DNA of 64,000 nucleotides from an uncultured bacterium (GTDB lineage Bacteria > Babelota > Babeliae > Babelales > Babelaceae): positions 864,001 through 928,000 of the forward strand of contig OY970209.1 in NCBI GenBank assembly GCA_963713855.1, given 5' to 3'. This document shows positions 32,472 through 56,812 of the stretch, piece by piece. The notes under the pieces were generated by a model that did not search any database, was not told where the DNA came from, and saw only the letters and a list, made by a program, of their open reading frames with translations. A program made the position numbers and the translations under genes. The stretch's first letter is position 1, and each line of letters begins with the position of its first letter.

Positions 32472-35400
32472 GTGATGACTATACTATTTAAAAATTGCGT
32501 AGATAGGGCGAAGTATTTTATTTTACGAAGAACGATTTTAGTATTAAGCTCACTCACTATTTTCACTTTTAGTTTGCTGATTCAAGCTATAAACGAAGCA
32601 AGTTACCCACTACCGGGAGCTTCTCTATGGCCTTTTTCCCTAGCATATTCACCTAACGGCTCATATCTTGCCACTGCTAACCTAAATGATATTTCACTAT
32701 TTAACGTTGGCGCAGGAGGAACGTTAACGAGTGGCGATTCGTCATCTCTTCCGGCAGGTCCGACTATGCCTCGTTCCGGAACACTCTCACCCAATGGCTT
32801 ATATCTTGCCACCGCTAACGAGTCAACCAATGATGTAACCATATTTACAGTTGGAACGGGAGGAGTAATAACAGGACAGGTTTCCCATCCTCTTCCTTCA
32901 GGTTCTTTATTGCCTTTATCAATAGCATTTTCGCCTTCAGGCAATTACCTTGTTACTGCTAATTTTGGTTCTAACGATGTAACTCTATTCAATGTGGGCG
33001 CCAACGGAATACTAGATAGCGGCACTTCATACCCGATACCCGTTCATTCTCTCGCTCCAAATTGTGTTGCGTTTTCGCCTAACGGTTTTTATCTCGCTGT
33101 TGCTAATTACAATTCAAATAATGTAACGCTCTTTAACGTAGGAGCGGGAGGGCTTTTGACGAACGCTATTTCTTATCCAGTTGGCTCTTCCCCTTGCTTG
33201 GCTGTAACATTTTCACCAGATAGTTCATACCTTATTGTTACCAATAACGGTGTTAATGTGTTCAGTGTTGGGGCAGGAGGAGTGCTAAGCTCAGGAAGCT
33301 TGTATGCGTTGCCTGCCGGTTCAGCTGGTCCTGTCTCAGTTGTATTTTCATCCAGTGGTTCATTTCTTGTTACAGCAAACTCATTATCTAACGACGTAAC
33401 CGTGTTTCAGGTGGGGTCCTCAGGCATATTGAGCGGGGCGGTTTCGTATCCATTGCCTGCTGGTTCTATAGGTCCCCAGACTGTCGTCTTCTCTTCAAGC
33501 GGATTGTATCTTGCTACAGCTAACTATAGCTCTTCAGACGTTACTGTGTTTCAGGTTGGCTCGGGCGGAGCGCTCAGTGGAGAGGTTTCATATGCATTAC
33601 CTATCCCCCTGTCTTTTCCAGCTTCATTAGCATTTTTAGCAAATGATTCTTATCTTGTCACAATCAATTATGTATTGCAGGATAACATAACTAAATTTAA
33701 TGTAGGAACAGGAGGAACGTTAAGCGGAGCTGTTTCATATCAGGTCTTATCTAATTCAATACAGTCTGTTGCAATAGCTTTCTCGCCAAATAGCTTATAT
33801 CTTGCAACAGCTGACCTTGTTGCAAACGAAGTGTCACTGTTTACGCTAGGAGCGGGAGGAACACTAAATGGCGGTACATCTTACCCATTGCCCCCTACAT
33901 CATACGGTCCCAACGCCATAGCTTTTTCACCAAGTGGATCTTATCTAGTTACCGCTAATAACTCGCTCGATGTGACAGTATTCACTGTGCAAGCGGGCGT
34001 GCTTAGTGTGGGCACATCCTACCCATTACCGGCAGGTGCTTCTCCGCCAGGATCGGTGGCGTTTTCACCCAATGGCTTGTACTTGGCTACCGCCAATCGC
34101 GGGCCGGTTAATGAAGTGACTATATTCACAGTCGGAGCCGGAGGAATCCTCAATGGAGGTACCTTGTATTCTCTGCCAGCAGGTTCTAACTACCCGTCTT
34201 CAATAGCATTTTCTCCAAATAACTCCTACCTTGCTACAGCTAATACAAACTCTGATAATGTCACTGTATTTACCGTAGGATCAGGAGGAGTTTTAAGTGG
34301 AGCAACTTCCTATCCAATGCCCCCCGGTTCCTTTGAGCCACAATCAATAACTTTTTCCCCAGATGGCCTGTATCTTCTAACCGCTAATGTGGGCTCAAAC
34401 GATGTAACGGTGTTTAATGTGGGAACGGGAGGTACTCTAAGCTCTCCAGCTTCTTACCCTTTGCCTTCTGGATGCACAAATCCTCAACAGGCAATATTTT
34501 CGCCAAATGGCTTAGATGTTGCTACAGCCAATTTTGGCTCATCAAATCTCAGCGTATTTACCGTAACAAACGGAATACTTAGTGCTGCTCAAACGTATCC
34601 TTTGCCCCCGCTATTTAAGGGATCTCGTGCACCGACGGCAATTGCTTTTTCGCCAGACAATGCCTATGTAGCTACAGCAAATCTTGATACGAGCGACATA
34701 ACACTTTTTAACGTGGAAGCACTTAACAATACATTTACTTTAGGAGCAAAAAAATCTTATCCGCTACCATACAATCGCGTTAACCCATCGCTTCCTGTTG
34801 CGATAGCTTTTTCTTTAGACAATTCATATGTATTGACTGCGAATGATGGGTCTAACGATGTAACTGTATTTAACTTAGTAGGCGGAGAACTCGTACGTGC
34901 TATTTCTTACCCATTGCCAGCAAATGGTACAAATCCAACGTCATTGCAGGTATCACCCGATGATCGCTATGTTGCGACTGCCAATAGCGACTCCAACACC
35001 ATTGTTGTTTTCAATTTCGCTGGAGGAATTTTAACTAATCCAACAAGTTGGGCATTGCCCAGTGGCGCTTTAAATCCTCAGGCATTAGCTTTCTCGCCCG
35101 ATGGTTCGTATCTTGCGACCGCAAACTATGGTTCGAGCAACGTTGCTCTTTTCGCCGTCTCGTCGGGTGCGTTACAAAGCGGAACTTTAGCAGCTCTCCC
35201 TCAGGGATCTGCGGGACCCCAAGCGCTCACGTTCGTTTCTCCATCAACCAATCTTTTGCTTTTGGTTACTGCTAATAGTCAGTCAAATGATATTACCGCG
35301 TTTACGGTGCAAGCGGGGGTTTTGGGTGCTGCTAAATCTTACTCTTTGCCAAGTGGCTCTTTAAATCCTCGATCGATAGCAGTGTCTCCAAATAACTTCT

Positions 35401-35822
35401 ACCTTGCAACTTCAGATAGTGCTTCAAACACGTTTACGCTATATACCATCGATGGAGGAGCATTTAGCTCGGCTACTTCCTACAATTTACCTATTAACTC
35501 GACGCGCTGCGTAGGGGTAACCTTTGGACCAAACACTACCAGCAATGGAGATGTGTACCTGGCTACAGCAAACTTCGCTTCAAATGATGTGACCGTGGCC
35601 GGATTATTGGGAGGCGGTAGCGGAAACGGAGCTACTGGAGATGGTAGCAGTTTACCAATAGGAGTTATTGTTGGAGTCAGCGTAGGAGTTCCGGTCGCGT
35701 TCGCTCTTGTTGCGGGAGTCGCTGCTCTAACAGCTTTTTTGGCCTATAAATATTTGCATAGACATCCGGCCGGCAGTGTGAATTTTGGAGGAAATGAATC
35801 AGCAGAGCTTTCCAGCTTATAA
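32472..35822 (+). CDS. 21-repeat beta-propeller membrane protein (paralog 4)
   Basis: 21 repeats; TM LPIGVIVGVSVGVP; tail LHRHPAGSVNF...LSSL. Confidence 0.85.
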   Translation: MMTILFKNCVDRAKYFILRRTILVLSSLTIFTFSLLIQAINEASYPLPGASLWPFSLAYSPNGSYLATANLNDISLFNVGAGGTLTSGDSSSLPAGPTMPRSGTLSPNGLYLATANESTNDVTIFTVGTGGVITGQVSHPLPSGSLLPLSIAFSPSGNYLVTANFGSNDVTLFNVGANGILDSGTSYPIPVHSLAPNCVAFSPNGFYLAVANYNSNNVTLFNVGAGGLLTNAISYPVGSSPCLAVTFSPDSSYLIVTNNGVNVFSVGAGGVLSSGSLYALPAGSAGPVSVVFSSSGSFLVTANSLSNDVTVFQVGSSGILSGAVSYPLPAGSIGPQTVVFSSSGLYLATANYSSSDVTVFQVGSGGALSGEVSYALPIPLSFPASLAFLANDSYLVTINYVLQDNITKFNVGTGGTLSGAVSYQVLSNSIQSVAIAFSPNSLYLATADLVANEVSLFTLGAGGTLNGGTSYPLPPTSYGPNAIAFSPSGSYLVTANNSLDVTVFTVQAGVLSVGTSYPLPAGASPPGSVAFSPNGLYLATANRGPVNEVTIFTVGAGGILNGGTLYSLPAGSNYPSSIAFSPNNSYLATANTNSDNVTVFTVGSGGVLSGATSYPMPPGSFEPQSITFSPDGLYLLTANVGSNDVTVFNVGTGGTLSSPASYPLPSGCTNPQQAIFSPNGLDVATANFGSSNLSVFTVTNGILSAAQTYPLPPLFKGSRAPTAIAFSPDNAYVATANLDTSDITLFNVEALNNTFTLGAKKSYPLPYNRVNPSLPVAIAFSLDNSYVLTANDGSNDVTVFNLVGGELVRAISYPLPANGTNPTSLQVSPDDRYVATANSDSNTIVVFNFAGGILTNPTSWALPSGALNPQALAFSPDGSYLATANYGSSNVALFAVSSGALQSGTLAALPQGSAGPQALTFVSPSTNLLLLVTANSQSNDITAFTVQAGVLGAAKSYSLPSGSLNPRSIAVSPNNFYLATSDSASNTFTLYTIDGGAFSSATSYNLPINSTRCVGVTFGPNTTSNGDVYLATANFASNDVTVAGLLGGGSGNGATGDGSSLPIGVIVGVSVGVPVAFALVAGVAALTAFLAYKYLHRHPAGSVNFGGNESAELSSL

Positions 35823-36084: not shown

Positions 36085-37527
36085 ATGATCGGTTATATGC
36101 CTAAAAAACTACTTATTTTTCTTGCGATGGCCCCCTGCATTTTATATGGCATGGAAGTGGGTGAAGAAGAACCTACAAAAGTGGATTCTGAAGCTACGCG
36201 TATCGATCGGCAAAACATACTTACCGTTCTTGAAGATGCTTATAATAGTCAGCTTCAAAAAGATCTTCAATTTCTTTGTGAGCACGCTCTTGAAGATTGC
36301 TTTCTCTTTACTATTGTTTTGAAGTTTTTTGAAGGCAAGAACACGAACAGAATTATTAAAACAATTATTCAAAAAGGCGCTGCCCAGCTTACAGTTTATC
36401 GTAATGCTTGTTTTGAAGCTTTAACTTATAATGATATTAAGCTACTTAATTGGCTCCAGGATCGCGGATTTGATGTTATTGGCTGCAAATATGCGTTTGG
36501 AGAGAGTGGTGCTCATATAGCTGCTTCTTGGGATAACGTTATCGTATTAGAGTGGCTCTACTTACATGGCGCTGATTTTAATGCGCGAGACAGTGAAGGG
36601 GTTAAACCCTTTGATAGAGCGGCTAGGCGAGGCGCTACTAATGCGATGGAATGGTTTTTTAGGCACACGACACAAAGAGCAATCAGTCATGATTCATTAG
36701 ATAACATATTAAGCGGGCTTGAGAACGGAATTTATGTTTGTCTATGGAAAAAAGGTACGCAACTGCACTCGCCACTTATACCCCTCTTGTGGTTGTTCGA
36801 GCATGCTGCTCTCTTGACCGACCGACAAGACCTAAATGCACGTCTTGGCAGCATCTTACAAAGATGGCCCTTTTCTGGGGTGTTATTTCATGATTCTGCG
36901 ACACTTTTAGGACTCGTACGAAACCTCAAGCCTGATAAAGATACCCAATGTTTTAATCATATTTTCTTGTTTTTGGCCGGTCGAGGAGAAAATTTTGTTG
37001 AAATTGTGTTGGAAAAAAAAATAGTGATCAGCATTCAACTTTTAAGATTTGCCTTAGAAACCGCTCTGGCACGCGGTAAAAGGCAAGTATTTGAAGTACT
37101 TTTTACTCATCTGCGCTCACGTTTACTACCCTCTAATGAAATGGTGGGCGAGAGCGATGATAGCGAACAATGTAAGTTTCTTACCAGAGAACTTTTATAT
37201 TTATCTGTAATAAGAGATAGCCCAGAAATTATGGATTATTTGTTGAGCTTTACGCCGCATTTACGAGAAAACATAGAATGCGTATTGGATCGCCTTAATT
37301 ACCTCGTCGCCACTTTTCAGCACGAACCGGCTGTAATTGAGCGTCTGATTGGTGTTCGTGGTAGGCTCATTGATATCCTTGTGAGCAGCTTAGATAACGA
37401 GCTAGATGAAGAGCAGAAAGTTAAAAAGGGGATTTTCAGAGTTTTATTTCCTAACGCTACTGAAGATGTTCGTGATCTTCCCAGCGAATTGTGGCGAATA
37501 ATGATGCATAAAGCATACAGTTTATAA
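36085..37527 (+). CDS. Secreted ankyrin-repeat protein with C-terminal F-box/PRANC-like motif
   Basis: GESGAHIAA..LEWLYLHGADFNARDSEGVKPFDRAA; signal ..LYG-ME; ends DLPSELWRIMM. Confidence 0.8.
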   Translation: MIGYMPKKLLIFLAMAPCILYGMEVGEEEPTKVDSEATRIDRQNILTVLEDAYNSQLQKDLQFLCEHALEDCFLFTIVLKFFEGKNTNRIIKTIIQKGAAQLTVYRNACFEALTYNDIKLLNWLQDRGFDVIGCKYAFGESGAHIAASWDNVIVLEWLYLHGADFNARDSEGVKPFDRAARRGATNAMEWFFRHTTQRAISHDSLDNILSGLENGIYVCLWKKGTQLHSPLIPLLWLFEHAALLTDRQDLNARLGSILQRWPFSGVLFHDSATLLGLVRNLKPDKDTQCFNHIFLFLAGRGENFVEIVLEKKIVISIQLLRFALETALARGKRQVFEVLFTHLRSRLLPSNEMVGESDDSEQCKFLTRELLYLSVIRDSPEIMDYLLSFTPHLRENIECVLDRLNYLVATFQHEPAVIERLIGVRGRLIDILVSSLDNELDEEQKVKKGIFRVLFPNATEDVRDLPSELWRIMMHKAYSL

Positions 37528-37806
37528 CGACAGAGAGAAAATTTCGTCTACCATAATGTCTCATTATATCGGGAGCACGCGATGTCCATTTCAAATTGAC
37601 GATGGCGACTACCTTTTAAACGTGACGGACAAATTTACTTTCGAAGATTAAATTTGTCCAAGCTTTTAGCTCGAACTAGGACGAATTTAGTTCAATACCT
37701 CGATTTACGGGGCGAGCTTAATCACAGGGAAGGTAGCCCAAGCCGGCGATCATCTGGGACCTCTTAGGCTCGTGAACATCTCAGCGAAGTATTACGATAA
37801 AAGTTA

Positions 37807-37836
37807 TTGACAAGAAGTTTTGTCTAATGGTATTAT
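37807..37836 (+). promoter_or_regulatory. Sigma70-like promoter of the leader and ABC operon
   Basis: TTGACA (37807-37812), 18 nt, TATTAT (37831-37836) with extended -10 TG. Confidence 0.75.
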
Positions 37837-37880
37837 TACGATTGTTAGTGTTGTACTATACCTTTTAGAAGGAGCTTGCC

Positions 37881-38021
37881 ATGTTTTTAGTTGAGAGAAG
37901 CTTCTTTTCAAGAAGCCTTGATCTCTCGAAGAATATAAGTGGTATTTTTGATGCCACCTATCCATGCTATTGCTTTTCTCATCTCTATTTCTTTTCTCAC
38001 CGCACCCATCATCATTGCTAG
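37881..38021 (+). CDS. His-rich leader peptide (46 aa), not in the ORF track
   Basis: AAGGAG then ATG 37881; MFLVERSFFSRSLDLSKNISGIFDATYPCYCFSHLYFFSHRTHHHC*. Confidence 0.7.
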   Translation: MFLVERSFFSRSLDLSKNISGIFDATYPCYCFSHLYFFSHRTHHHC

Positions 38022-38110
38022 TTTTTTTGTTTTATTAGAGCAGTTTGGCTCTTATAGTAGCGTAACGTTTAAACCGCGTTAATGATCTTTTTTAAATAAC
38101 TTTATGGGTG
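38003..38110 (+). promoter_or_regulatory. Putative translational attenuator (His codons pair with the RBS)
   Basis: CACCCAT 38003-38009 is complementary to ATGGGTG 38104-38110; nested ATCATT/AATGAT, GCTA/TAGC, AGAGC/GCTCT and AACG/CGTT helices. Confidence 0.6.
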
Positions 38111-38114
38111 ACGT

Positions 38115-38900
38115 ATGTCAAAAAAAGTTTTAGTGGCATCTCTATGCCTGATAGCATTTTTCAGTAATTATTTTATGAGTAACGAGGAAAAAAGACCGGT
38201 AAAAACATTGACTGTGGGGATGATGAGCGGCTGGGCACCATTCATGTCGGTTAATGATAGCGGGAATTATGAAGGCTTCGACGTTGATGTAGCAAAAGCA
38301 CTTTCTGAGCGCTTGGGCGCACAATTGGTTATTAAGGACCTGGGATCACTTGCTTCCTGTTTTATTGCACTTCAACAAAATAGCGTTGATCTGGTTTTGT
38401 CTGGGCTTGATATAACCCAGAAACGTCTTGAAACTATGAACATGGTACCTTATCTTGGTAAGGGCTTTAAGGAATACTATTTGGTTTTTTGGAACGAAAT
38501 TCCCGCTGGAGTTTTAAAACTTGAAGACCTTAAGAATATACAAAATCCCGTCGTCTGTGTTGAGCCTGGTAATTCACCAGAAAAGTTTCTTGATCGTTAT
38601 GATTACATAACCAAAAAACAACTGAGCTCATTATCAGATATTGTACTTGATCTGGGGTACGGTAAATCGTTAGCGGCATTTCTTGAACCTCAAGTGGTAA
38701 AAAGATTGAGCCAAATACGACCAGAGATCGTTTCTTTGGCAGTGCCGTTGCCTGAGGAATTTCAGGTATTTGGATACGGAATTGCGTTACAAAAAAAGAA
38801 TACCGTTCTTACAAACGCTATCACAAGCATAATACAACAGCTAAGAACAGAAGGGCTTTTGCAGCAACTTGAAACAAAATGGAAAGTGGATGGGGTATAA
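38115..38900 (+). CDS. Polar amino-acid ABC transporter substrate-binding protein (possibly histidine)
   Basis: WAPF...GNYEGFDVDVAKAL, VDLVLSGLDITQKR, GYGIAL.K; no His in 261 aa. Confidence 0.9.
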   Translation: MSKKVLVASLCLIAFFSNYFMSNEEKRPVKTLTVGMMSGWAPFMSVNDSGNYEGFDVDVAKALSERLGAQLVIKDLGSLASCFIALQQNSVDLVLSGLDITQKRLETMNMVPYLGKGFKEYYLVFWNEIPAGVLKLEDLKNIQNPVVCVEPGNSPEKFLDRYDYITKKQLSSLSDIVLDLGYGKSLAAFLEPQVVKRLSQIRPEIVSLAVPLPEEFQVFGYGIALQKKNTVLTNAITSIIQQLRTEGLLQQLETKWKVDGV

Positions 38901-38902
38901 TC

Positions 38903-39565
38903 ATGGTGCTTTCATTTTTAAAAACAAGTGGCCCTCTTCTTGCTCAAGGAGCTTTCATGACGCTTTTTGTGTGGTTGGTAAGCAGCGTTATGGCGTTGGT
39001 CTTAGGTACTTTTTGGGGCGTCTTACGAAGTTACCACATGCGTATCAGGTATGTATCTTGCTTTCTTGACTTAGCATCATTCATATTGAGAGGAATTCCC
39101 TACTACGTACAACTTCTTATAGCCTATTTTGTCATTCCTCACATCGTCGGTATTAACGTATCAGCGCTCACCGCTGCAATCATTTCACTTGGCTTATGTT
39201 CTTCAGCGTACATAAGCCAAGTAGTATACGGTACCATGAATGCGTTGCCTTCCGGGCTATGGGAAGCGTGCTTTGTACTTGGATACTCATCATATCAAGC
39301 ACTCATACGAGTTATTTTGCCTCTGACAGTGCGTAATGCGTTACCAGTATTTATCAATGAACTAGATCAGCTTCTTAAGACAACGGCGATCCTTTCAACG
39401 ATTGGTATTCTCGAATTGACGCGTGCGGGCATGAATATTATTGCACGTGAAATGAACCCGATACCTGTCTATCTAACACTTGCTCTTATATACCTAGCAG
39501 CCTCAACCGTACTTACTCTTGTCTCCCGCGTTGTCGAAAAAAGGATGTCTTATGTTGTCAGGTAA
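38903..39565 (+). CDS. Polar amino-acid ABC transporter permease (HisM/GlnP family)
   Basis: RGIP..VQLL, SSAYISQ, EAA-like LWEACFVLG, LLKTTA. Confidence 0.9.
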   Translation: MVLSFLKTSGPLLAQGAFMTLFVWLVSSVMALVLGTFWGVLRSYHMRIRYVSCFLDLASFILRGIPYYVQLLIAYFVIPHIVGINVSALTAAIISLGLCSSAYISQVVYGTMNALPSGLWEACFVLGYSSYQALIRVILPLTVRNALPVFINELDQLLKTTAILSTIGILELTRAGMNIIAREMNPIPVYLTLALIYLAASTVLTLVSRVVEKRMSYVVR

Positions 39566-40268
39566 TATAAAACGATTGTCATATAATAAGGCGCCGATTC
39601 TTACAGATATTTCATGTACTATTGAGTACGGACGAATCACGAGCTTTATTGGAAAAAGCGGATCGGGAAAAACGACCCTATTGCGGTGTCTTGCTGGACT
39701 TGAAAAAACCTATGAAGGCTTGGTTACGCTTGATGGAAATGATATTGGTACATTTGAGGCGCAGCAACGTGCTGAGGCTCTCGGTTTTGTTGCTCAAAAT
39801 GTATATCTTTTTCCACAGCTTACTGCAATCCAAAATTGTGTACAACCCTTGCGTGTTGTAAAAAATGTGCCAAAGGATGTGGCTGTGGACAAGGCTTTTA
39901 CCGTTTTGAAGAGCCTTGGTATGGAAACATTTGCTGATAACTATCCTGGACAGCTTTCCGGCGGTCAGCAGCAACGAGTTGCTCTTGCGCGAGCATTGTG
40001 CTTAGAGCCGAAGATACTGTTGCTTGATGAGCCAACGTCCGCGCTTGATCCCGAAAATACGGCTATAGTTGCCCAGCTACTAAAGCGGCTAACAGAACAA
40101 GGTATTGGTATTGGTGTTTCAAGTCAGGATACGGGTTTTATACGCAGCATCATGGACAGAGTTTACTTAATCGAGGCAGGCTCTATCACTGCTCAATTAG
40201 ATAAAAAAGTATGCAATCAAATGAATGAAAATATTCCAATTTCAGTCTTTTTAAAAAATGTTACATAA
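39552..40268 (+). CDS. Polar amino-acid ABC transporter ATPase (HisP/GlnQ family), H-loop His replaced by Gln
   Basis: GKSGSGKTT, YPGQLSGGQQQRVALARAL, LLDEPTSALDPE, VSSQD; no His in 238 aa. Confidence 0.9.
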   Translation: MLSGNIKRLSYNKAPILTDISCTIEYGRITSFIGKSGSGKTTLLRCLAGLEKTYEGLVTLDGNDIGTFEAQQRAEALGFVAQNVYLFPQLTAIQNCVQPLRVVKNVPKDVAVDKAFTVLKSLGMETFADNYPGQLSGGQQQRVALARALCLEPKILLLDEPTSALDPENTAIVAQLLKRLTEQGIGIGVSSQDTGFIRSIMDRVYLIEAGSITAQLDKKVCNQMNENIPISVFLKNVT

Positions 40269-41410: not shown

Positions 41411-42043
41411 ATGAAGAAGTTTGCATTTTTAGCTTGTCTTTTAGTTACTTATCTTGTTAAAGGCGAAGGATTTATTGCTGGAACGCTTGTAAAAACTGTG
41501 GATGGTTATCGACCGATAGAGGAAATAAAAGTAGGAGCTTCGGTTACCAGTCTTAATTTCGAGGGTTCTTGCGGTAAGTTTAGCTTTTTTCAATCAGATA
41601 TTGAAGGCGAAGTGACCAATGTGTACGCGAGAGAGGTCGATAGACTTATTAAAATCACTGTCGATAATCAAACGATAGTTGTGGCGGCAGATCAGAAATT
41701 TTTTCTTCCCCTAAATCTGCATAAGCCCTGGATAGAAGCAAGTGAGTTGCGTCCAGGCCACATGGTCTTGAAAAACTGCACAGACTTAGCTCCTGTTACT
41801 AGCATAGAAATAAGTGAAGCTAAAAGTACTGTCTACAGTATTTCAGTAAAAAATTATCCTAATTTCAGCGTATCCTTACTCGATATACAAGTGCACAATC
41901 ATGATCAAGAGATGTCTGACTACGATGTAGAGTATGATTCATCCGATGATAGTCGCTCTTTGTTTAGCTTTCTAGCTGCTATGGTGCTTTCATTCATTGT
42001 GGTACGTTTAATGGCTGAGGAAGAACGAGTTTGCCAGTGGTAA
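41411..42043 (+). CDS. Secreted Hint (BIL/PT-HINT-like) domain protein with short C-terminal peptide
   Basis: Signal peptide; EGFIAGTLVKTVDGYRPIEEIKVG, WIEASELRPG, VYSISV...NFSV....IQVHN. Confidence 0.85.
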   Translation: MKKFAFLACLLVTYLVKGEGFIAGTLVKTVDGYRPIEEIKVGASVTSLNFEGSCGKFSFFQSDIEGEVTNVYAREVDRLIKITVDNQTIVVAADQKFFLPLNLHKPWIEASELRPGHMVLKNCTDLAPVTSIEISEAKSTVYSISVKNYPNFSVSLLDIQVHNHDQEMSDYDVEYDSSDDSRSLFSFLAAMVLSFIVVRLMAEEERVCQW

Positions 42044-42368: not shown

Positions 42369-43124
42369 ATGTCGATAGTTGTATGGTTATTTCTGATGAC
42401 GAGTTTTTGTTCCATTTTTTCAATAAGCGGGAAAGTACTTGAGCGCATGTCGCCCGAGTGGGTTGCCGAAGAATGCCGTCAAATTGCGCACTTAGATACG
42501 AAAGAGAAATATGACTATAGTTTTCCTGTAGCTGAATGCCGTTCATATTTGACTCCGGAGCTTTTGCCAAGTGTTTATGGATCTGAAAAACCTGAAGAAA
42601 TAATGCAGTGGGCCCTAACTGCATTGTCTGTTAGCAATTATGACAGGTCCGAGAAACACCTTGAAGAACTGGTTAATTTAAACTATACGCGAGCTTTCTT
42701 CTATTTAGCCTGGTTATATCAAAAAAAGGACCAGCTAGATGCTGCTAAATTTTTATATCGGAAGGCTATTGAGAGAGCGCAAAGTGGTTATGCCTATAAT
42801 AATCTTGGCACTCTCTATGCCATTGAGGGTGACTATGAAAAAGCTAAATCTTATTGGAAAGAAGCATCAAAGATGGGCATTCGAGAAGCTTCTAGAAATC
42901 TACAATTACTAGAGCTCACAATGCGTGATATCCTGGCTAACAAAATAGTTACTGTCGTGCTGCAGTTTTTACCAATTGTACCGATAATTATCGTGGGTTT
43001 TGCCGCGTATCTGTCAAACAAGCGCGTTTTGCCTCGATCTCAGCGACTTCTCAACGCTTTCATTCTATTCTCTGCTCTATATACCTTACGAAGTTTTATG
43101 ACATCGGAGTCTCACACGGAATAA
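42369..43124 (+). CDS. Sel1/TPR-repeat protein with signal peptide and two C-terminal TMs (copy 1)
   Basis: AFFYLAWLY, AYNNLGTLY..EGDYEKA..YWKEA. Confidence 0.85.
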   Translation: MSIVVWLFLMTSFCSIFSISGKVLERMSPEWVAEECRQIAHLDTKEKYDYSFPVAECRSYLTPELLPSVYGSEKPEEIMQWALTALSVSNYDRSEKHLEELVNLNYTRAFFYLAWLYQKKDQLDAAKFLYRKAIERAQSGYAYNNLGTLYAIEGDYEKAKSYWKEASKMGIREASRNLQLLELTMRDILANKIVTVVLQFLPIVPIIIVGFAAYLSNKRVLPRSQRLLNAFILFSALYTLRSFMTSESHTE

Positions 43125-43127
43125 TTA

Positions 43128-43288
43128 GGTGTTTTAGAGGCTTTTTTTAGTTCTTCTCGTTTGTCACTCTATAACTTTTTGACAAAGTGAGTTGTGTGCT
43201 CTGAAAGAAAGCAGAAAATATAGAGTGCAATTTCAATTGCTGAGATGTTCACATTATCTCCGTTTATAATGGGCCTATGACTGTTCAT
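43128..43288 (-). repeat. Diverged 3'-end remnant of the 45066..47456 gene
   Basis: 43128-43155 resembles 45046-45074 and 43161-43288 resembles 45204-45335. Confidence 0.8.
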
Positions 43289-43364
43289 AGCGTATCTATT
43301 GACGCCATTAATACTAATCAATATAATTGATAATATTACAGATATTAATATTAAAGGGAATTTG

Positions 43365-44111
43365 ATGCGATCAAAGTGGTTATTCGTCGTGGTTATGGGT
43401 GTTTACGGTACACTTCTCATAAGCCAAGAAAGTGATATTGAGCGTACTGTAAAAGACTGCCATCAGGTTTTAGTTCCAAATCCGAACGAAGAAAAAGGAA
43501 TTAGATACTTGAAGGATTATTCTATCAAAATGAATGCAGAGGGTTTTGTTCAGGAAGAATCAACATATACAGAAAATGATTTTTTGTGCCAAGAAAAAAC
43601 AACTTACAAACCGGATCAAAAATTGGAATGTGCCTTGCGATTGATGGGTCAAAGCGACCTTACGTCTGCAGAAATTATACTACAGAAATTAGTAGACTTA
43701 GAATATGAGCCTGCTTATTTTCATCTTGGTTTTCTTTATCACAAAAAAAACGAAATCGAAAAAGCAGTTAAATATTATCAATTGGCGGCAGAAAAGAATA
43801 ACGCAAACGCTTATCTTCAACTCGGCGGAATATATATTGCCGAGTACAAATTTCTAGAAGCTAGAGACAATTGGCAGCTGGCCGCCAATTTGGGGAGTGT
43901 AGAAGCGCAAGAAAGATTAAGCGCCCTTACATTGTTTGCAGTTTTAGTAGCTTCAGCGGCAGGTGATACGATAATGCTGGTTTACCTTTTGATGAAAGAA
44001 TTGAACGAGTTTTGGCGCTTAACTGATTTGGCTGGCATATTAATATTTGTCACCACCGTGTGTGCCTTAAAAGGCATGAGGACTTTAGCTCCCAACATGA
44101 CTGACAGTTAA
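43365..44111 (+). CDS. Sel1/TPR-repeat protein (copy 2)
   Basis: AYFHLGFLY..EKAVKYYQLAAEKNNANAYLQLG; ATG 43365 after AAGGGA. Confidence 0.85.
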   Translation: MRSKWLFVVVMGVYGTLLISQESDIERTVKDCHQVLVPNPNEEKGIRYLKDYSIKMNAEGFVQEESTYTENDFLCQEKTTYKPDQKLECALRLMGQSDLTSAEIILQKLVDLEYEPAYFHLGFLYHKKNEIEKAVKYYQLAAEKNNANAYLQLGGIYIAEYKFLEARDNWQLAANLGSVEAQERLSALTLFAVLVASAAGDTIMLVYLLMKELNEFWRLTDLAGILIFVTTVCALKGMRTLAPNMTDS

Positions 44112-44128
44112 CTATTTTTTGGTGTTAC

Positions 44129-44218
44129 TTTTTTTAGCGTTTGTGAGCATGAGTGCATAACGCTTTTCTTACATCACGAGCCCGTTGACTCACTTCTGAT
44201 GAGCTTGCATGCTGCTTG
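44129..44218 (-). repeat. Second diverged 3'-end remnant of the 45066..47456 gene
   Basis: Encodes SQRARDVRKALCTHAHKR* versus intact SQGARDVRKSLYTHAHKN*. Confidence 0.8.
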
Positions 44219-44340
44219 CGCTAGTCTATCGGGCCATCGTTCGAATATATCGCGATCTGAGTCTATTGTTGACTCTTTAAAATTTAAAATTATATAATAA
44301 AAATAATATTGTCAGATTTAGCTTGATTTAAGGAAAGAAT

Positions 44341-45057
44341 ATGCGTAGCTTTGTTTGGACTTTCTTTTTAATCTCAATGTGTAATACAGTCACAGTGCAG
44401 TCTGATGAGCAGCAGGCAAAAGCTCAAGAGACGTATATGGATAGTTTTCCAGAAGCTGAGTATCGTTACTATCTTAATCTTCCTTTACAAAGTGCTGATG
44501 CGTACGAAAGCCCAGAAGATTTAATGCATCGGGCTGCGATTATGATGTTGATTGATAAATATGCCACCGCAGAAATGTATCTTGAAGCTCTGATCAAAAT
44601 AAATTTTAAACCAGCTTTCTTTTATTTAGCTTACTTATACCACATGATGAACCAGCTAGAAAAAGCAAAATTTTTTTATTTGAAGGCTATAGAAAGAGCA
44701 AAAAGCGCTGATGCGTACAATAATCTTGGCTATATATATGCTCTTGAAGGGGATTTTAAAAAAAGTCATGAGTATTTGCAAGAAGCGGCAAAGAGTGGAA
44801 TTCAAAAAGCAATGCATAATCTAGAGCTCCTTGATAAAATTACAAAACAAAGAGAAAGTGATGAGCGCTATCGAATTTTGCAAATCTTACCAGTAATCGC
44901 ATTTGCAGCAGCTACGTTGGGACTTTTCAGATTTATGCCAGTCCCTCCTGGCCAAGTAAGCATTCCTCCCCTGCTTTTGCTTTTGACGCTTGCGACTTTA
45001 ACTTATGCCTTAAAAATGTATGCCAATTTCGAGGGATTTGAACGCGGTGTATTTTAG
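44341..45057 (+). CDS. Sel1/TPR-repeat protein (copy 3)
   Basis: Clear paralog of copy 1: AFFYLAYLY, KAIERA.S..AYNNLG. Confidence 0.85.
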   Translation: MRSFVWTFFLISMCNTVTVQSDEQQAKAQETYMDSFPEAEYRYYLNLPLQSADAYESPEDLMHRAAIMMLIDKYATAEMYLEALIKINFKPAFFYLAYLYHMMNQLEKAKFFYLKAIERAKSADAYNNLGYIYALEGDFKKSHEYLQEAAKSGIQKAMHNLELLDKITKQRESDERYRILQILPVIAFAAATLGLFRFMPVPPGQVSIPPLLLLLTLATLTYALKMYANFEGFERGVF

Positions 45058-56622: not shown

Positions 56623-56714
56623 GGAGAGGTGTCTGAGTGGTCGAAAGAGCACGATTGGAAATCGTGTATACCTTTAACCGGGTATCGAGGGTTCGAATCC
56701 CTCTCTCTCCACCA
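56623..56714 (+). tRNA. tRNA-Ser(GGA)
   Basis: GGAGAGG/TCTCTCC acceptor, cacga-ttGGAaa-tcgtg anticodon arm, long variable arm, GTTCGAATCC, encoded CCA. Confidence 0.96.
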
Positions 56715-56718
56715 AGAT

Positions 56719-56802
56719 GGAAGCTCATAAAAAGCGACTGCTTACCGTGTCAGGTCCGAAAGGAAGCAGCACAAAGCATCACCGTTTTTGTATGAGCTTC
56801 CC
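56719..56802 (+). ncRNA. ffs: Signal recognition particle RNA (small 4.5S type)
   Basis: Helix-8 motif TCAGGTCC-GAAA-GGAAGCAGC in a long hairpin closed by ggaagctcata/tatgagcttcc, then T8. Confidence 0.95.
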
Positions 56803-56812
56803 TTTTTTTTGC

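Follow-up and report, generated by a model that had tools for sequence, protein, structure and literature searches.

The leader ORF and the importer operon

The window, a stretch of 64,000 nucleotides from an uncultured member of the Babelaceae (contig OY970209.1, positions 864,001 to 928,000), carries a short open reading frame directly upstream of an amino-acid ABC operon, preceded by a promoter-like sequence and a ribosome-binding site (Table 1). The C-terminus of the encoded peptide is SHLYFFSHRTHHHC, directly followed by the stop codon; His is found at codons 34, 40 and 43-45, and 93 nt separate the end of the frame from the ATG of the binding-protein gene. The predicted promoter matches 11 of 12 consensus positions and is the best of six sites in 37000-39000, against 4.9 sites of at least 9/12 in shuffled sequence. 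Sites of at least 9/12 were also counted upstream of 31 of the 46 related leaders described below, a consensus count made without a shuffle control. An earlier note, written from the letters alone, had described the promoter, the AAGGAG, the 46-codon His-tailed frame and the 93-nt gap, and all of these were recovered at the same positions.

The leader ORF has no Pfam or NCBIfam match, and the leader region had no Rfam match at the gathering thresholds, the His leader family included. Of the 1,415 SD-led ORFs of 10-70 codons in the 1.52-Mb genome, no other has four or more His among its last 12 codons, and this one ranked first in a search for similar leaders among the 91 intergenic SD-led small ORFs.

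Table 1. Positions of the features at the leader and importer locus (numbering of the window)
Feature	Position	Strand	Basis or remark
Sigma-70-type promoter, TTGACA-18-TGnTATTAT	37807..37836	+	Predicted, consensus match; TTGACA 37807-37812, 18 nt spacing, TG-n-TATTAT 37828-37836
Leader RBS, AAGGAG	37869..37874	+	Read in sequence
His leader ORF, 46 codons, stop TAG	37881..38021	+	ORF reading, orthologous leaders
C/U-rich, G-poor coding tract, candidate intragenic rut site	37959..38018	+	C20, T26, A10, G4; 14 YC dimers; putative function
CACCCAT, complement of the binding-protein RBS region	38003..38009	+	Real here, not conserved
U-rich tail after the stop	38022..38051	+	17 T of 30
Two weak hairpins, candidate pause sites, not intrinsic terminators	38032-38057, 38063-38081	+	Second, -2.9 kcal/mol
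ATGGGTG, RBS region of the binding-protein gene	38104..38110	+	Read in sequence
Family-3 substrate-binding protein	38115..38900	+	Related to Chlamydia ArtJ, pocket signature different; substrate predicted
Polar amino-acid ABC permease	38879..39565	+	TIGR01726 above cut-off
ABC ATPase (GlnQ/ArtP/HisP-like)	39519..40268	+	Profile search

Conservation and distribution of the leaders

Orthologues of the binding protein were sought with an alignment profile, which had matches in 85 of the 261 genomes of the phylum, and the counts given here are based on the 109 distinct orthologous binding proteins that scored at least 200 bits. The best relatives by protein came from records titled TM6, Dependentiae or Babeliales, and further ones were Chlamydiota and Verrucomicrobiota MAGs. 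A genome of the same genus gave no orthologue match (best E 1e-4), and no close relative suited to covariation analysis of the local helix was found, the best being 51% identical. His-rich uORFs, which the earlier note had suggested looking for in orthologous operons, were present before 45 of the 109 binding-protein genes, and yerC, a repressor gene discussed below, stood before 33: the loci comprised 44 with the leader only, 32 with yerC only, one with both, 27 with neither and five with too little upstream DNA, counts which overstate the independence of the cases because the genomes are kin. His-tailed frames were also found at two further distinct metagenome loci. The leader set analyzed below consists of 46 distinct sequences, from which duplicates had been merged and L134 dropped (it lies inside a yerC region and has no ATG), while L057 was retained with its three His; L162, whose leader lies 590 nt upstream, and L282-L284 stand outside the set.

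The leaders are 17-64 codons long (median about 39), end with TAA in 41 of 46 cases and are separated from the importer gene by spacers of 56-354 nt. Between four and nine His are found among the last 15 codons of 45 leaders, and the last His lies at most two codons from the stop in 43. An SD-led ATG was found in the His frame of 44 of the 46, compared with none and one in the other two frames. What the 46 share is the tail and a Ser/Phe-rich stretch; residues farther upstream could not be aligned, and outside the tail no conserved peptide arrest motif was found. As controls, SD-led small ORFs were inspected at 68 distant family-3 loci within the phylum, where none was His-rich, and at 57 distant loci of other phyla, where one His-rich leader (L067) was found. 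His leaders before other genes were also searched for with the pattern CAYCAYCAYNNNCAYTAA, which matched in 75 of the 261 genomes; among the 30 loci listed, four were the binding-protein leaders themselves, and no SD-led His ORF was present at the remaining 26.

The leader ORF exceeds what chance would give, since it is the sole His-tailed case among the 1,415 ORFs of its genome and is conserved in relatives. The earlier view of an unannotated His-codon leader before an amino-acid importer is therefore upheld, and judging by the orthologous leaders and their SD-led start codons the frame is very probably translated. That it is a His-sensing leader which controls the importer is, on these comparisons, a reading in which we place high confidence.

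Three loci are unusual in their arrangement or label. At L011 yerC is followed by a leader and then by a GC-rich spacer of 272 nt, and at L162 an ORF of 147 codons separates the leader from the binding-protein gene. The record of L053 carries the title Chlamydia trachomatis; this label looks doubtful, since both the binding protein and the leader of the locus fall among those of Parachlamydiaceae.

Substrate of the importer and alternative regulation

The binding protein scores below all NCBIfam cut-offs, and the solved structures nearest to it are named arginine binders, which we counted against a histidine reading. Its pocket residues, as those of its orthologues, track the leader type. At position 150, E is present in 45 of the 46 proteins with a His leader and in all 32 YerC-linked proteins, Q in all six proteins with an Arg leader, as in ArtJ, and L in all five proteins of the Lys type; the six Arg-leader proteins also share FD at positions 79-80 with Chlamydia ArtJ. 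The linked regulators and the pocket signature indicate that the protein is probably histidine binding. The hisD gene was found in none of the 261 genomes of the phylum by a search that detected it in 14 of 14 controls, and its absence means that histidine must be imported. Leader types provide a predicted substrate (His versus Arg versus Lys-like) for the clades of ArtJ-like importers. A second family-3 importer of this genome (L281), at 470400-474700 of the contig, belongs to a polar amino-acid ABC operon that begins with an ArgR gene, which we counted in favour of histidine at the locus studied here.

At the alternative loci, yerC encodes a YerC/HisR-type repressor (67 bits to TIGR02531, cut-off 42), a member of the TrpR family. 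The gene occurs in 36 of the 261 genomes, in 33 of them beside the importer operon, and it had no match in the genome studied here. HisR of the YerC family has been described as a repressor of hisXYZ* importers (PMC9413887). A palindrome like TGTGCTATCATGATAGCACA was seen by eye to overlap the -10 box at many yerC loci, and it is a candidate operator for HisR; it resembles the motif of TrpR and proteobacterial HisR more than that of Firmicutes. This likeness to both the TrpR and the proteobacterial HisR motifs and the TrpR-family membership of YerC were counted against specificity for histidine. Upstream of yerC at L008, L015, L017, L120, L127 and other loci the palindrome reads TGT(G/T)CTATCATGATAG(C/A)ACA and covers an extended -10 box. 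When the two types of regulator were mapped as labels onto a quick tree of the binding proteins, the leader label changed 15 times (at least seven changes forced by starred branches) and the yerC label seven times (at least two forced).

Nucleotide composition of the tract and the spacer

The end of the leader ORF is unusual in its nucleotides as well as in its codons. Among 60-nt segments of the genome, the C-G excess of the tract is reached by 0.17% and its pyrimidine content by 0.06%. Across the 46 leaders, the last 60 coding nt have a C fraction of 0.32 and a G fraction of 0.087, compared with 0.19 and 0.21 in the binding-protein genes, a raw difference that is inflated by the His codons, which are themselves C-rich and G-free, and that is addressed by a test on the non-His codons: these are 73% pyrimidine in the last 20 codons versus 63% under synonymous redraw, and none of 2000 redraws was as high. 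YC dimers number 13.9 versus 5.2 per 60 nt, and the MFE is -5.2 versus -12.3. Serine is written as TCN or AGY at a ratio of 163:10 in the last 20 codons of the leaders versus 385:252 in the binding-protein genes, and across the leaders Cys is TGC 28 times and TGT three times, a bias which points to selection on nucleotides. The 5' codons of the leaders show no pyrimidine excess, and their G is slightly low. Past the stop, the first 30 nt are 51% T in the 46 leaders. From codon choice and predicted folding we conclude that selection at the nucleotide level keeps the last 60-90 nt of the leader rich in C/U, poor in G and free of structure, and that a U-rich spacer with weak hairpins follows.

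It has also been proposed, in the earlier note, that the leader might sense more than one amino acid, as it is rich in Phe, Tyr and Cys. The last 15 codons contain Tyr in six, Cys in 22 and Phe in 28 of the 46 leaders. Since Tyr is this sparse, Cys is almost always TGC, and the use of Phe and Ser, like that of Cys, reflects nucleotide choice, the co-sensing of Phe, Tyr and Cys is not supported and was rejected.

The absence of a strong terminator, which had been remarked on before, was borne out: the locus has no terminator-like site, and no strong one is conserved in the family. Terminator-like elements of -10 kcal/mol or better occur in two of the 46 spacers and have poor tails. Weak hairpins with a T-rich tail are found in 23 of 46 at -4 kcal/mol (4.6 in shuffles) and in 8 of 46 at -7 (1.0 in shuffles), and these counts indicate that weak hairpins have been selected and strong terminators have not. 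For comparison, 67 of the 437 free gene ends of this genome have a hairpin with T at -4, and 35 of the 437 have a strong intrinsic terminator. When a ribosome was moved from the first His codon to the stop, fewer than five base pairs switched in 30 of the 46 leaders and at least five in 16, this leader included, and no competing antiterminator pattern is shared among these 16. Classical terminator/antiterminator attenuation was rejected on the lack of sites at this locus, the two strong elements in 46 and the 30 leaders that barely refold. By eye, a small hairpin of the TGCCA...TGGCA type was seen across or just before the stop at L004, L011, L014, L003, L007, L016 and L140, with a U-rich run about 10 nt later; it may be a pause hairpin, and may be the reason for the penultimate Cys.

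Arg- and Lys-type leaders

The 27 loci with neither a His leader nor yerC include six with Arg-tailed leaders, five with Lys-rich leaders and one with a His leader farther upstream. The Arg-tailed leaders (L018, L165, L169, L170, L176 and L190) lie 119-488 nt before the binding-protein gene, end for example in ...SFFSSSRRRARRI and the stop, and use CGN for 25 of 26 Arg codons. They have the same TCT-rich tract and a T-rich, G-free tail, with Ser as TCN or AGY at 28:3, so the C/U tract is a property of the mechanism, whichever amino acid is sensed.

The Lys-rich leaders (L048, L179, L180, L181 and L182) lie 158-379 nt before the binding-protein gene in one well-supported clade of binding proteins and have a common peptide motif, VIPxS(I/V)HFxxxDAKT(F/Y)P. 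The conservation of this motif would fit an arrest peptide better than a simple run of codons.

Proposed mechanism and alternatives

We lean, if by a little, towards the view that a histidine auxotroph controls its histidine ABC importer by a leader that senses the charging of tRNA(His), with Rho as the most likely means; once a His-sensing leader is granted, Rho is, from the composition of the tract, a fairly likely output. According to this model, when histidine is plentiful the ribosome would complete the leader and be released at the stop, Rho would load on the exposed Ser, Phe and His codons and catch a polymerase paused in the spacer, and transcription would end before the binding-protein gene. 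When histidine is short, the ribosome would stall on the His codons, cover the tract and block the path of Rho, which would allow read-through and transcription of the importer operon. The switch would need no refolding of the RNA. Rho loading sites have been described as unstructured tracts with more C than G and with YC dimers (PMC12360218; PMC9426467), and cruR offers a precedent for an intragenic rut site under a stalled ribosome (PMC9426467). Rho scored above its cut-off in 57 of 61 genomes, the misses being three genomes that are 55-82% complete and one partial match, and NusG is encoded in the genome studied here, few of whose gene ends (35 of 437) have a strong intrinsic terminator. 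Several points were counted against Rho: a C-rich, G-poor tract alone is no proof of its use; the enriched weak hairpins with T tails also fit weak intrinsic termination; and 16 of the 46 leaders switch at least five pairs, while the anti-RBS helix at this locus is the strongest of the 46. Mycobacterial poly-Cys leaders call for caution: they were first guessed to be Rho dependent (PMC1262725), and SD pairing was then demonstrated as the mode of action of one of them (10.1101/834739).

Alternatively, the leader might do without Rho if hairpin-plus-U elements in the spacer bring about weak intrinsic termination or make the polymerase pause. Such elements exceed the shuffles severalfold (23 versus 4.6 of 46) and are commoner than at ordinary gene ends (67 of 437), the U-rich tail begins directly after the stop, and the TGCCA/TGGCA-type hairpin was seen by eye over the stop at several loci. 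We nevertheless consider this explanation unlikely, as only two of 46 spacers reach -10 kcal/mol, with poor tails, stalling rather than reaching the stop switches fewer than five pairs in 30 of 46, and the C-rich coding tract is left unexplained.

It has also been proposed that the His-codon region sequesters the RBS of the binding-protein gene, so that a stalled ribosome would open it by translational attenuation, a hypothesis put forward in the earlier note and with a precedent in mycobacterial poly-Cys leaders (10.1101/834739). CACCCAT and ATGGGTG are indeed exact 7-nt complements and are paired in the MFE structure. Of the parts said to nest inside this helix, GCTA/TAGC and the two hairpins do, but ATCATT/AATGAT is unpaired in both MFE structures. 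CACCCAT was placed in the His run; it includes His43 but also Thr42 and the last base of Arg41, and thus does not consist of His codons only. The duplex of this genome (-13.0 kcal/mol) is the strongest of the 46 and lies in the top 2-4% of swaps, and the RBS opening energy falls from 9.0 to 5.5 kcal/mol once the His codons are covered. The helix thus opens as predicted when the His region is masked, but a ribosome at the stop opens it equally (5.6 kcal/mol). The local MFE was not better than that of shuffled sequences (z -1.09, 25 of 200 as good; z -0.46 for the second fold). Across the 46 leaders, the His region pairs with its own start region at a mean of -5.99 kcal/mol and with swapped start regions at -6.01 (permutation p=0.51). 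Blocking the His codons lowers the opening energy by at least 2 kcal/mol in four leaders, this one included, and blocking the entire leader does so in five, with a median of 0.1. The helix is therefore not the mechanism of the family: conserved pairing of the sensing codons with the downstream RBS is absent from the 46, and this genome is an outlier of a kind expected once or twice per 46 by chance. Spacers of up to 354 nt also speak against it. As the mode of control, RBS sequestration seems to us quite unlikely, and the helix seen here may be a local add-on or chance.

Control through mRNA decay, in which the stalled ribosome would shield single-stranded U-rich RNA from an endonuclease, fits the unstructured U-rich tract and tail and has the same direction of control. 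Selection in the tract favours C and disfavours G, the pattern of described rut sites, rather than favouring A/U, and this makes decay very unlikely. That the His/Cys tail is a metal-binding or metal-sensing arrest peptide like CruR, and not a tRNA sensor, is suggested by the HHHCH endings, by the Cys that 22 of the 46 leaders have among their last 15 codons and by the cruR precedent (PMC9426467), but becomes highly improbable in view of the Arg tails at the same place in paralogues, the HisR-type repressor as a replacement at orthologous loci, the nucleotide selection visible in TGC over TGT (28:3) and the lack of a conserved peptide motif outside the tail. A chance ORF without regulatory role, to which the missing Pfam and NCBIfam matches and the unalignable upstream residues might point, is hardly credible and largely refuted by the conservation at orthologous loci, the controls at distant loci, the SD-led ATG in the His frame and the uniqueness of the frame in its genome.

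Coming back to the Rho-gated leader, we extend it to a family of modular attenuators in Babeliota and in environmental Chlamydiota that do without RNA structure. The Ser/Phe codons would form the Rho loading site, a swappable end codon run (His, Arg, perhaps Lys) would pick the sensed tRNA, and ribosome dwell alone would gate Rho without a terminator, an antiterminator, an RBS helix or an arrest peptide. The HisR repressor and the His leader would have repeatedly traded places at the importer operon. The family and the exchange, taken jointly, strike us as evenly balanced between true and false. The presence of one or the other regulator at orthologous loci indicates that these auxotrophs follow their histidine supply in two interchangeable ways. 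If Rho is the output, a simple codon-run sensor would be coupled to an intragenic rut site, and leaders of this kind would be invisible to terminator-based attenuator screens. The bacteria concerned are uncultured and host dependent, and their gene regulation is almost undescribed.

Relation to known systems

The classical his attenuator (hisL) of E. coli and Salmonella, with Firmicute cases (PMC9413887), likewise has a short uORF upstream of a histidine-related operon, with tandem His codons close to the end of the uORF, and stalling turns the operon on. The leaders described here, however, have no terminator/antiterminator pair or Rfam match, are longer, have a His run that abuts the stop, and control an importer in an auxotroph. 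According to a 2025 review, hisL may combine intrinsic termination and Rho (PMC12360218).

The cruR-bfrG system of Bordetella (PMC9426467) is similar in having an importer operon, an unstructured tract with more C than G in the uORF and shielding by a stalled ribosome, with ligand excess turning it off. CruR differs in being a conserved protein that senses copper and carries CXXC and RAPP arrest motifs, whereas the sensor proposed here is a codon run without a conserved peptide, with Rho as its presumed partner. In tnaC and speFL (uORF-mediated Rho attenuation, PMC12360218), a ribosome near the uORF stop also blocks Rho, but there the ribosome is stalled by free ligand in the exit tunnel and catabolic genes are induced, and the sign with respect to the ligand is opposite; the tnaC rut site, unlike the one proposed here, lies after the stop (PMC12360218). 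A codon-run sensor combined with an intragenic rut site is not among the uORF rows of the table in that review (PMC12360218). The mycobacterial poly-Cys leaders (PMC1262725; 10.1101/834739) share a run of sensing codons adjoining the stop and the lack of a terminator, but the tested case has a very stable SD-sequestering duplex (10.1101/834739), a pairing not conserved here.

The HisR (YerC) regulon with hisXYZ* importers (PMC9413887) has the same repressor family beside a polar amino-acid ABC operon in auxotrophs and a palindromic operator over the promoter; HisR control is the alternative at 33 orthologous loci and not at this one. In the accessible part of that study, Babeliota and Chlamydiota are not named (PMC9413887). 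Neither His leaders beyond the Proteobacteria nor attenuated ABC operons are new (PMC2965389; PMC9413887), and a leader-gene catalogue covers Chlamydiae in external tables (PMC4833913). No title or abstract opening found in the literature describes the present leaders, and an earlier mention of chlamydial members is possible.

Other features

The runner-up among the 91 intergenic small ORFs of the genome, at 834451 of the contig, has 44 codons, is SD-led and has no codon run; it has a C/U-rich tail and a T-rich 3' side, with a small gene 123 nt downstream. Elsewhere in the window, judging by the look of their motifs, we take 32472-35822 to encode a beta-propeller-like repeat protein of 1116 aa, 36085-37527 an ankyrin-like protein, 41411-42043 a Hint-domain-like protein and 42369-45057 three tandem TPR/Sel1-like paralogues. 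At 56623-56807, a tRNA is directly followed by the small SRP RNA.
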